Part shown: positions 5,882 through 7,333 of the stretch, piece after piece
How positions within the stretch are numbered: position 1 is the stretch's first letter
How the letters are laid out: every line of letters begins with the position of its first letter
Source of the DNA: Candidatus Marinacidobacterales bacterium
GTDB lineage: Bacteria; Acidobacteriota; Vicinamibacteria; Marinacidobacterales; DATDRI01
DNA: 64,000 bases
Direction of reading: 5' to 3'
NCBI GenBank assembly: GCA_965219415.1
Contig: OZ244742.1
Coordinates: 1,056,001-1,120,000, forward strand
Notes under the pieces: model-generated
Databases searched by the model: none
What the model was told of the DNA's origin: nothing
What the model saw: only the letters and a program-made list of their open reading frames with translations
Made by a program: the position numbers and the translations under genes

Positions 5882-7333
5882 CTAGCCCTTAATCACACCC
5901 ATCGGGCGGAGTTGTGCGACCTTCTGGCTGATGCCCGCTCCCTGAACCACATCCACGACTTCCGCGACGTCTTTGTAAGCCTCCGGAATCTCTTCCACCA
6001 AAGTGGCTCTCCCTGAGGCTCGGACGATGATCCCCTGCTCTTCCATCTCGCGAACGATGGCGCGTTTGCCGGCGGTCTTCCGCGCCTGGCGACGACTCAT
6101 CCGCCGCCCGGCACCGTGGCAGGTACTTCCAAAGGTCTCCTGATAGGCGCGCTCCGTGCCCACCAAAACATAAGAGTAACGGCCCATGTCCCCGGGGATG
6201 AGGACCGGTTGTCCAACCGCGCGGTAGGCGGAGGGAATCTCGGGATGGCCGGGTGGAAAGGCTCGCGTCGCTCCCTTACGGTGGACGCACAGTTTTTTCT
6301 TCTTGCCTCCGACCCGATGCTCTTCGAACTTAGCGATATTGTGGCAAACGTCGTAAACCAAACCGAGGCCGAGTTTCCCGCGGCCAATTCCGAGCACCTT
6401 CTCGAAGCTCTCGCGCACCAAGTGCGTGATCATTTGCCGGTTAGCGAAGGCGTAGTTGGCGGCCGCCGACATGGCACCTAGATAACGCTTCGCCTCTGGA
6501 GAGGTCAGAGGTGCGGCGCAAAGCTGGCGATCGGGGAGCTCGATGCCGTACTTCGCGGAAGCGCGTAGCATGATCTTCAGGAAGTCGTCACACACCTGAT
6601 AGCCGAGCCCGCGGGACCCGGTGTGGATCGAGACCGTCACCTGTCCGGGGAATAGACCTAGAGCATCGGCAAGCCTCTGGTCGTAGATTTCGGCGACGTA
6701 CTGGATCTCGCCAAAGTGGTTCCCCGAACCGAGCGTCCCCAGTTGCGAGCGCCCGCGTTCGATGGCGCGGGGACTGACCTCGTCAGGATCCGCACCCTCG
6801 AGGCAGCCCCCTTCTTCGATGTACTCGAGGTCAGTTTCGGTTCCGTAGCCGTTGGCCACTGCCCAACCCGCACCTCGCGTGAGAACTCGTCGCAACTCAG
6901 ACTGGGGGAGCTTGAAATCGCGACGGTGCGCCCCGACACCGGTTGGAACATTGGCAAAGAGGGTCTCGACCAACTCCCGGAGTTTTCCGTCGACGTCCTC
7001 GCGACTCAGACCTGAGCGCAGTAGCCGGACTCCTCAGTTGATATCGAAACCGACACCCCCCGGCGAGACCACGCCGTCGTCTTCGGGCGAGAAAGCGGCA
7101 ACGCCCCCAATCGCGAAGCCGTAGCCCCAATGAATATCCGGCATCGCGATGGACCGGCCTACGATACCGGGAAGGGACGCCACGTTGGCCACTTGCTCGA
7201 GGGCAGGATCCCCGCGAAGGGTGTCGACGAAAGACTGGCTCGCGAAGACCAATCCCTCGACACGCATCTTCCCTTCTCTCGGGAGCCGCCAGCGGTTGTC
7301 GTCGATTTTCTGAATCTTGACTTTGCTTGCCAT
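5882..7333 (-). CDS. rtcB: RNA ligase RtcB (archaeal/eukaryotic-type length, 483 aa) with in-frame TGA at catalytic Cys; candidate selenoprotein
   Basis: One continuous frame: [74 protein letters not shown] before ATG 7333; TGA at 7034-7036 is codon 100. Confidence 0.93.
6992..7033 (-). promoter_or_regulatory. putative bacterial SECIS element directly 3' of the rtcB in-frame UGA
   Basis: mRNA UGA-GGAGUCCGGCUACU-GCGCUCA-GGUC-UGAGUCGC-GAGGACGUC; apical loop starts 21 nt after UGA; CAGGUCUG equals the fdhF SECIS core. Confidence 0.75.

Follow-up and report, generated by a model that had tools for sequence, protein, structure and literature searches.

An in-frame UGA at the metal-bridging cysteine codon of rtcB: a probable selenocysteine form of the RNA ligase RtcB in two bacterial phyla

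The gene for the RNA ligase RtcB in a Candidatus Marinacidobacterales bacterium (Acidobacteriota) is interrupted by a TGA, and this TGA stands exactly where the RtcB proteins studied so far have the cysteine that bridges their two catalytic metal ions. Is the gene broken, is it split into two products, or is the UGA read through, and if so, as which amino acid? We address these questions for the window, a stretch of 64,000 nucleotides (assembly GCA_965219415.1, contig OZ244742.1, positions 1,056,001 to 1,120,000), and for related genes elsewhere. We consider it highly probable that codon 100 is read as selenocysteine (Sec), which would give a full-length, functional RtcB with a selenolate at the metal bridge. 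The features on which the argument turns are the following, with SECIS standing for selenocysteine insertion sequence and nucleotides of the hairpin counted from the U of the UGA.

5882..7333, minus strand: rtcB coding sequence, 483 codons plus stop, with TGA at codon 100; matches the Pfam RtcB family and solved structures.
7034..7036, minus strand: in-frame UGA at codon 100, the proposed Sec codon, aligned with Cys98 of Pyrococcus horikoshii RtcB.
7001..7019, minus strand: SECIS-like hairpin, nucleotides 18-36, within codons 106-112 (L-R-S-G-L-S-R).
7338..7345, minus strand: purine-rich Shine-Dalgarno-like stretch AAAGGAAA, 4-11 nucleotides upstream of the ATG at 7333, as read from the sequence.

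The letters at 7034-7036 on the plus strand are 'tca', the TGA codon of rtcB. When TGA is translated as U, the gene encodes one protein of 483 residues with one internal TGA, at codon 100, and zero frameshifts. Under genetic code table 11, two open reading frames (ORFs) are called instead: one of 107 aa from an alternative ATG at 7357, which overlaps the archease stop codon (ATGA), and one of 363 aa. The read-through protein covers the whole Pfam RtcB profile (PF01139, 1-426 of 426) with 592.6 bits, and among solved structures it matches Thermus thermophilus TTHA1785 (2epg) with 632 bits and P. horikoshii RtcB with 574 bits. In the alignment to the 7lfq chain, U100 pairs with P. horikoshii Cys98 (residue 118 of 7lfq minus a 20-residue tag, which gives the numbering of 1uc2 and 4dwq), and D97, N205, H206, H237, H331, N332, H406, and K482 correspond to P. 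horikoshii D95, N202, H203, H234, H329, N330, H404, and K480. The metal ligands Asp95, His203, His234, and His329, as well as the guanylylated His404 (P. horikoshii numbering), are therefore all present in the window protein. A preliminary description of the locus had read the two ORFs as one frame of 483 aa without a frameshift, with TGA as codon 100 at the position of P. horikoshii C98 and the other active-site motifs intact; our re-reading of the minus strand and the alignment agree with it on each of these points.

According to PMC9745838, Cys98 of P. horikoshii RtcB bridges Mn1 (held together with His234 and His329) and Mn2 (held together with Asp95 and His203), the C98A exchange abolished every reaction step, and one RtcB crystal showed Cys98 as a sulfonic acid. 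In everything tested, the predicted window protein conforms to RtcB, residue 100 excepted: the codon of the bridging cysteine is UGA and not one for Cys. If this UGA encodes Sec, the ligand would be the selenium analogue of cysteine.

The TGA is a property of the DNA and not of one assembly. Contigs of three studies, one of which may be the window's own source, span positions 6700-7400 and carry the TGA; two of them show 0 differences from the window and one shows 6, none of which falls at 7034-7036. Pairwise ratios of nonsynonymous to synonymous substitution rates (dN/dS) in clade A are far below 1 on each side of the TGA, at 0.03-0.09 before it and 0.04-0.12 after it where an estimate of the synonymous rate (dS) was possible; many dS values exceed 1.5 or are saturated. 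Because the codon is conserved across relatives with low dN/dS at high dS, it has been kept for a long time and both halves of the gene have remained constrained.

The same TGA was found in many other genomes. A search of 61 genomes, that of the window and those of its 60 closest relatives, showed that rtcB is present in six of the seven other genomes of the window's family. In five of these, from four genera and at 80-95% protein identity, the codon in question is TGA, while the rtcB of G006 (88% identity) has TGC at the site. When one genome per species was scanned for the pattern G-F-D-I-N-TGA-G-V, eight of nine matches proved to be rtcB with TGA, from genomes labelled as Ca. Marinacidobacterales, Terriglobia, and other Acidobacteriota; L047, from Thermodesulfobacteriota, was discarded as a chance match without an open frame. 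A broader pattern applied to metagenomes returned 24 matches, all of them rtcB with TGA at the site. Both scans required G-F-D-I (the genome scan also required Asn before the TGA), so that the commoner GYDIN forms are missed, and the counts of 8 and 24 are thus lower bounds for one motif variant only.

Samples of 401 genomes from each of two phyla give a wider view. Among the 161 acidobacterial genomes with an rtcB match (a tally that includes the unpublished G209, a Cys form), 13, counting the window, have TGA at the Cys98 codon. Fourteen acidobacterial genomes besides the window were flagged for one TGA, which lies at the Cys98 codon in 12 of them and at a Ser codon in one, with no TGA in the aligned part of one more. 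The gene with the TGA at a Ser codon, L087 (G175:C1:95908-97750), has TGA where its relatives have Ser187 (TCA) and Cys at the site; it is not a Sec gene, and a nonsense mutation or an error in sequencing probably accounts for its TGA. L092 was set aside, having been flagged for a TGA with no stop in its aligned part. Among Thermodesulfobacteriota, 325 genomes have an rtcB match, and one TGA was found in 46 of the best 150 of these 325 matches; all 20 genes inspected have it at the Cys98 codon. On this basis, about one in three of the best-matching rtcB genes in the Thermodesulfobacteriota sample would be of the Sec form. In total, TGA at the exact codon was found in 58 other rtcB genes in which the hairpin was checked, plus six partial metagenome copies, and 34 Cys-form rtcB genes were read at the DNA level. 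The gene of the window is no isolated oddity, and the Sec form occurs commonly in two phyla.

In protein databases, Cys occupies the site in each of the 354 full-length homologs that three protein searches listed. Nine further entries lack the motif; these are C-terminal fragments of 358-381 aa, and they are Sec genes truncated by gene callers. NCBIfam holds no Sec-specific RtcB model. These truncated entries of close relatives are how gene callers see the locus, and together with L087, whose TGA looks like a plain nonsense mutation or error elsewhere in rtcB, they are what can be said for taking the TGA as a nonsense mutation or an assembly error and rtcB as a pseudogene. We rejected this explanation, whose probability we regard as practically nil: the TGA recurs in contigs of several studies and at the same codon in genes from two phyla and a Nitrospinota-like lineage, purifying selection continues downstream of it at saturated dS, and the codon affected is exactly that of the cysteine.

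A gene with a Sec codon needs a host that can decode it. The genome of the window comprises 8.05 Mb in three contigs, with the window on C1, and it holds selA (569.7 bits) and selB (375.8 bits), both above curated cut-offs, selD (328.3 bits), and a tRNA-Sec with anticodon tca. All four lie on contigs C2 and C3, in line with the preliminary observation that selA, selB, selC, and selD are absent from the window itself. The selD gene (C3:3889655-3890587) has an in-frame TGA of its own at the known Sec/Cys site, TCAG-U-ASKL. In the other acidobacterial genomes with TGA in rtcB, selA was present in 17 of the 17 tested. As a side observation, selD appears to be a second selenoprotein gene of this genome, and a small hairpin with a GGUUC loop lies further downstream of its TGA.

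Bacterial Sec codons are followed by a SECIS hairpin, and a candidate for such an element lies within rtcB. In the window it has the stem GCG-CUCA / UGAG-(U bulge)-CGC and the apical loop GGUC; its distance from the UGA and the G-U of its loop match those of bacterial SECIS elements, for example the one in E. coli fdhF. For each gene we folded nucleotides 12-40 and scored the centred hairpin per sequence, and no single structure with fixed columns was used since the registers differ by type (loops at nucleotides 22-26 or 25-29, with a bulge or with none). A centred hairpin was present in 59 of 59 Sec genes (58 distinct loci), with a mean of -11.3 kcal/mol, as compared to a mean of -6.1 kcal/mol in 34 Cys genes, the majority of which have no such hairpin. 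The loops are encoded by (S/T)-G-L or S-S/F-L codons and almost always contain G-U. Several types occur:

Type A, that of the window: GCGCUCA-GGUC-UGAG(Y)CGC, loop at nucleotides 25-28; common to many Thermodesulfobacteriota genes.
Type B, from Terriglobia: 7-bp stem, loop AGUUC at nucleotides 22-26.
Type C, on two metagenome contigs with Nitrospinota-labelled sequences as their nearest Cys homologs (67% identity): a wholly different 7-bp stem, loop AGUUU.
Type D: loop GGUCU.

An ungapped alignment of types B and C (19 distinct sequences) has standard pairs in 133 of 133 cells, with five of the seven pairs changed on both sides; none of 500 shuffles reached this level, and registers slid along the alignment pair in 28-41% of cells. 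Covariation is uninformative for type A because its stem is invariant, and here the evidence comes from synonymous sites. In seven full-length clade-A genes, considering columns with a conserved degenerate amino acid, 29 of 313 columns are codon-invariant overall, while five of the seven hairpin codons (+5 to +11 from the UGA) are, the single best run of the gene; the two variable hairpin codons alter only loop nucleotide 28 and bulge nucleotide 33.

These results bear on two further explanations, both of which accept that the gene is intact. In the first, the UGA simply terminates translation, giving either a two-piece enzyme (99 aa and a restarted C-terminal part) or a selenium-dependent switch with the truncated peptide as main product. 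Bacterial Sec insertion is in constant competition with termination, and an in-frame TTG at 6973, 21 codons after the UGA, could serve such a restart. Those 21 codons, however, are conserved as protein and hold the conserved hairpin, and selA accompanies the TGA in every genome tested. A split enzyme would also lose its bridging metal ligand, and the C98A enzyme is inactive (PMC9745838). We therefore regard termination as the main outcome as extremely unlikely.

In the second, the UGA is read by a standard tRNA (a near-cognate Trp or Cys tRNA) or as Cys on tRNA-Sec, and the protein contains no selenium. Cys is functional at the site, lineages switch freely between TGA and TGC/TGT, and misreading of UGA as Cys or Trp is known from other systems under selenium limitation. 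Plain read-through would nevertheless leave unexplained a hairpin that is fixed in position, synonymously conserved, and compensating, as well as the confinement of TGA to selA-bearing genomes (17 of 17). Furthermore, TGA is otherwise an ordinary stop here, since it ends archease at 7354-7356. A selenium-free product of this kind appears highly unlikely to us, and the reading of codon 100 as Sec is the one we carry forward. At the level of sequence, the predicted Sec-RtcB has every hallmark of a bacterial selenoprotein. The preliminary description had proposed that the UGA is decoded as Sec and had named the sequencing reads at the TGA, dN/dS on both sides of it, homologs with TGA at this codon, and the Sec machinery as bearing on it; the TGA stands in independent assemblies, the other three results speak for the proposal, and so does the hairpin.

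Sec and Cys forms have replaced each other repeatedly. In a tree of 126 RtcB proteins (56 Sec and 70 Cys; L075 and L076, shorter than 400 aa, and L090, from the same contig as L049, were dropped), the two forms are interleaved, and 19 changes are needed, at least 12 of them forced by strongly supported branches. An earlier tree of 80 rows needed 8 changes, with at least 5 forced. Because the Sec rows were chosen on purpose and the rows are related, these counts are minima for the sample and not rates. Some switches are very recent. L027, the Cys gene of G006, and L076, a Sec gene from a metagenome, are told apart by 12 of 945 bases, the TGC/TGA difference included, and have identical hairpins; this is a very recent switch, or possibly a polymorphism. 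The Cys form L121 from Thermodesulfobacteriota also keeps a Sec-type hairpin, and such 'fossil' hairpins in Cys genes suggest past losses of Sec to Cys. Among the Thermodesulfobacteriota Cys forms L121, L128, and L131, the Sec-type hairpin is either complete or broken by one step.

If codon 100 is read as Sec, the decoding would involve SelA, SelB, SelD, and tRNA-Sec, guided by the SECIS hairpin within the coding sequence that starts 14 nucleotides after the UGA, with SelB delivering Sec-tRNA-Sec to UGA100. The selenolate would take over from the thiolate of Cys98 in bridging the two catalytic Mn(II) ions. In other respects, the predicted enzyme would be a standard RtcB ligase of 3'-phosphate and 5'-OH ends, with archease-assisted guanylylation of His406 followed by ligation. 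Oxidised selenols are easily reduced back, and the most likely benefit would be protection of the one oxidation-sensitive residue of RtcB, as an oxidised selenol would be reducible while Cys98 goes irreversibly to the sulfonic acid. Altered metal preference through the softer ligand may be a second benefit. Lineages may exchange Sec for Cys and the reverse, which takes only one base change, because Sec is advantageous but dispensable. Taken as a whole, the picture of Sec-RtcB as an old, very widespread non-redox selenoenzyme, in which a selenolate bridges a binuclear manganese centre and makes the residue repairable or retunes the metal, is one we offer tentatively, as possible rather than probable.

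Several observations weigh against this interpretation in whole or in part. The case for Sec insertion is made from sequences, and oxidation resilience or metal tuning as the benefit is our hypothesis. The sole RNA-library contig found covers 7067-7223 (identical), stops short of the UGA, and could stem from DNA carried over into the library; it is no evidence of read-through and does not establish transcription with certainty. The hairpin of the window is unremarkable at -8.9 kcal/mol, as 993 of 5000 synonymous recodings fold as well, the corresponding counts for types B, C, and D being 2, 0, and 143 of 5000; the fold energy of the window copy alone gives the hairpin no support, whereas the conservation evidence does. 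In Rfam, no SECIS or other family matched the hairpin, apart from a meaningless snoRNA match (E=5.5). Cys often replaces Sec, even between copies that are 98.7% identical, and selA is still found in 15 of 17 Cys-form genomes tested. Since Cys replacement is frequent and these genomes keep selA, the advantage of Sec would be modest or conditional, and the Cys forms do not simply result from loss of the Sec trait. Finally, an engineered P. horikoshii RtcB with Sec98 cleaved itself spontaneously, at a peptide bond near the Sec residue, as reported in PMC4150793. Sec at this site is therefore not harmless in every RtcB, and the natural Sec enzymes may carry compensating features; the natural genes evidently tolerate Sec, because they are kept under purifying selection.

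Comparison with known systems helps to place the enzyme. The Cys-type RtcBs (TTHA1785, 2epg; P. horikoshii, 1uc2, 4dwq, and 7lfq; human RTCB) belong to the same full-length fold family and agree with the window protein in metal ligands, nucleophilic His, and guanine-binding Lys, and the archease gene next to rtcB in the window is a further likeness. The difference lies in the bridging codon, which is UGA with a SECIS hairpin in the window, whereas all solved or biochemically studied RtcBs have Cys. Sec is a direct metal ligand in formate dehydrogenase (Mo/W) and [NiFeSe] hydrogenase, which also use UGA with a SECIS hairpin just downstream. These, however, are redox enzymes with redox-active metals, while RtcB is a GTP-dependent nucleotidyl transferase and ligase whose Mn(II) ions do not act as redox cofactors and whose ligand bridges two metals, unlike that of the selenoenzymes just named.

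The engineered P. horikoshii enzyme has Sec at exactly the same residue (U98), but it is artificial: in PMC4150793, Sec was inserted at UAG (amber) in E. coli without a SECIS, whereas the natural genes have UGA and a SECIS. A natural answer to the same weak point is found in animals. According to PMC12263435, human RTCB is oxidation-sensitive at Cys122, is inactivated with Cu2+ present, and needs the PYROXD1 shield; the weak point in both cases is oxidation of the active-site Cys (Cys122 in human, Cys98 in P. horikoshii) by Cu2+ and oxidants. PYROXD1 is a separate shielding flavoprotein, while Sec-RtcB would exchange sulfur for selenium in the ligand itself, presumably for the same purpose.

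A natural Sec-RtcB was not found in the open full-text literature, where only the engineered U98 enzyme and unrelated papers came up. By term look-up, RtcB and RNA ligase are absent from the main texts of a 2006 survey (PMC1794560), two reviews (PMC9312934 and PMC13188914), deep-Sep (PMC12013277), BSepDB (PMC13326102), and a study of marine Deltaproteobacteria (PMC8318568), in the last of which 'ligase' refers only to the pyrrolysine enzyme PylC. Sec-RtcB is thus apparently undescribed in the main texts, and prior tabulation in supplementary family lists (BSepDB Table S2, PMC8318568 Table S6, or those of other surveys) is possible. The preliminary description did not count RtcB among the established selenoprotein families, and these main texts are consistent with that.

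The neighbourhood of rtcB in the window is as follows.

7354..7767, minus strand: archease, the RtcB activator; Pfam Archease, 140 bits, profile 1-136 of 136.
5421-5789 and 4954-5358, minus strand: two small ORFs downstream of rtcB, without a Pfam match.
8023-8469, plus strand: Hsp20/alpha-crystallin gene, divergent from the archease-rtcB pair.

Archease ends 20 nucleotides upstream of the rtcB ATG at 7333 on the same strand, and the two genes are probably co-transcribed. Among the small ORFs, 5421-5789 begins with a signal-peptide-like segment, and both have an ...IHTE...W motif, which suggests that they may be paralogs.

Other rtcB sequence in the window's genome is limited to four loci.

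C2:16266-16700: rtcB fragment.
C3:2378566-2378978: rtcB fragment.
C3:5557444-5559131: rtcB fragment.
C3:5586653-5587092: rtcB fragment.

The search of the window's genome revealed no intact paralog of rtcB with Cys, and the idea that such a copy covers for the Sec gene was rejected, as the remaining eight RtcB-profile matches, at these four loci, are fragmentary and none reaches the Cys region. The fragments are near-identical, partly frameshifted pieces with common flanks; they derive from the C-terminal portion of rtcB of the E. coli type and look like remnants on a repeated element. The best NCBIfam model for the window RtcB is NF038162, the intein-containing RtcB, whose C-terminal match begins at residue 99. 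This start would place the intein of those relatives directly before the Cys/Sec residue, so that in them one residue would be both splice-junction residue and metal ligand.

These results are relevant to both the RNA-repair field and the selenium field. As gene callers split or truncate the gene, as they did in the nine database entries, RtcB is annotated too rarely in bacteria that use selenium. Many switches between Sec and Cys are recent, and some of them separate near-identical strains, so that nature supplies matched pairs for experimental comparison; Sec-RtcB offers a ready-made test of whether selenium is chosen for its resistance to irreversible oxidation in a catalyst that is not a redox enzyme. 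The predicted enzyme would be a rare case of manganese-bound selenium. If the reading is true, Sec-RtcB would be the first selenium-dependent RNA-repair enzyme and a chemical counterpart of the PYROXD1 shield of animals.

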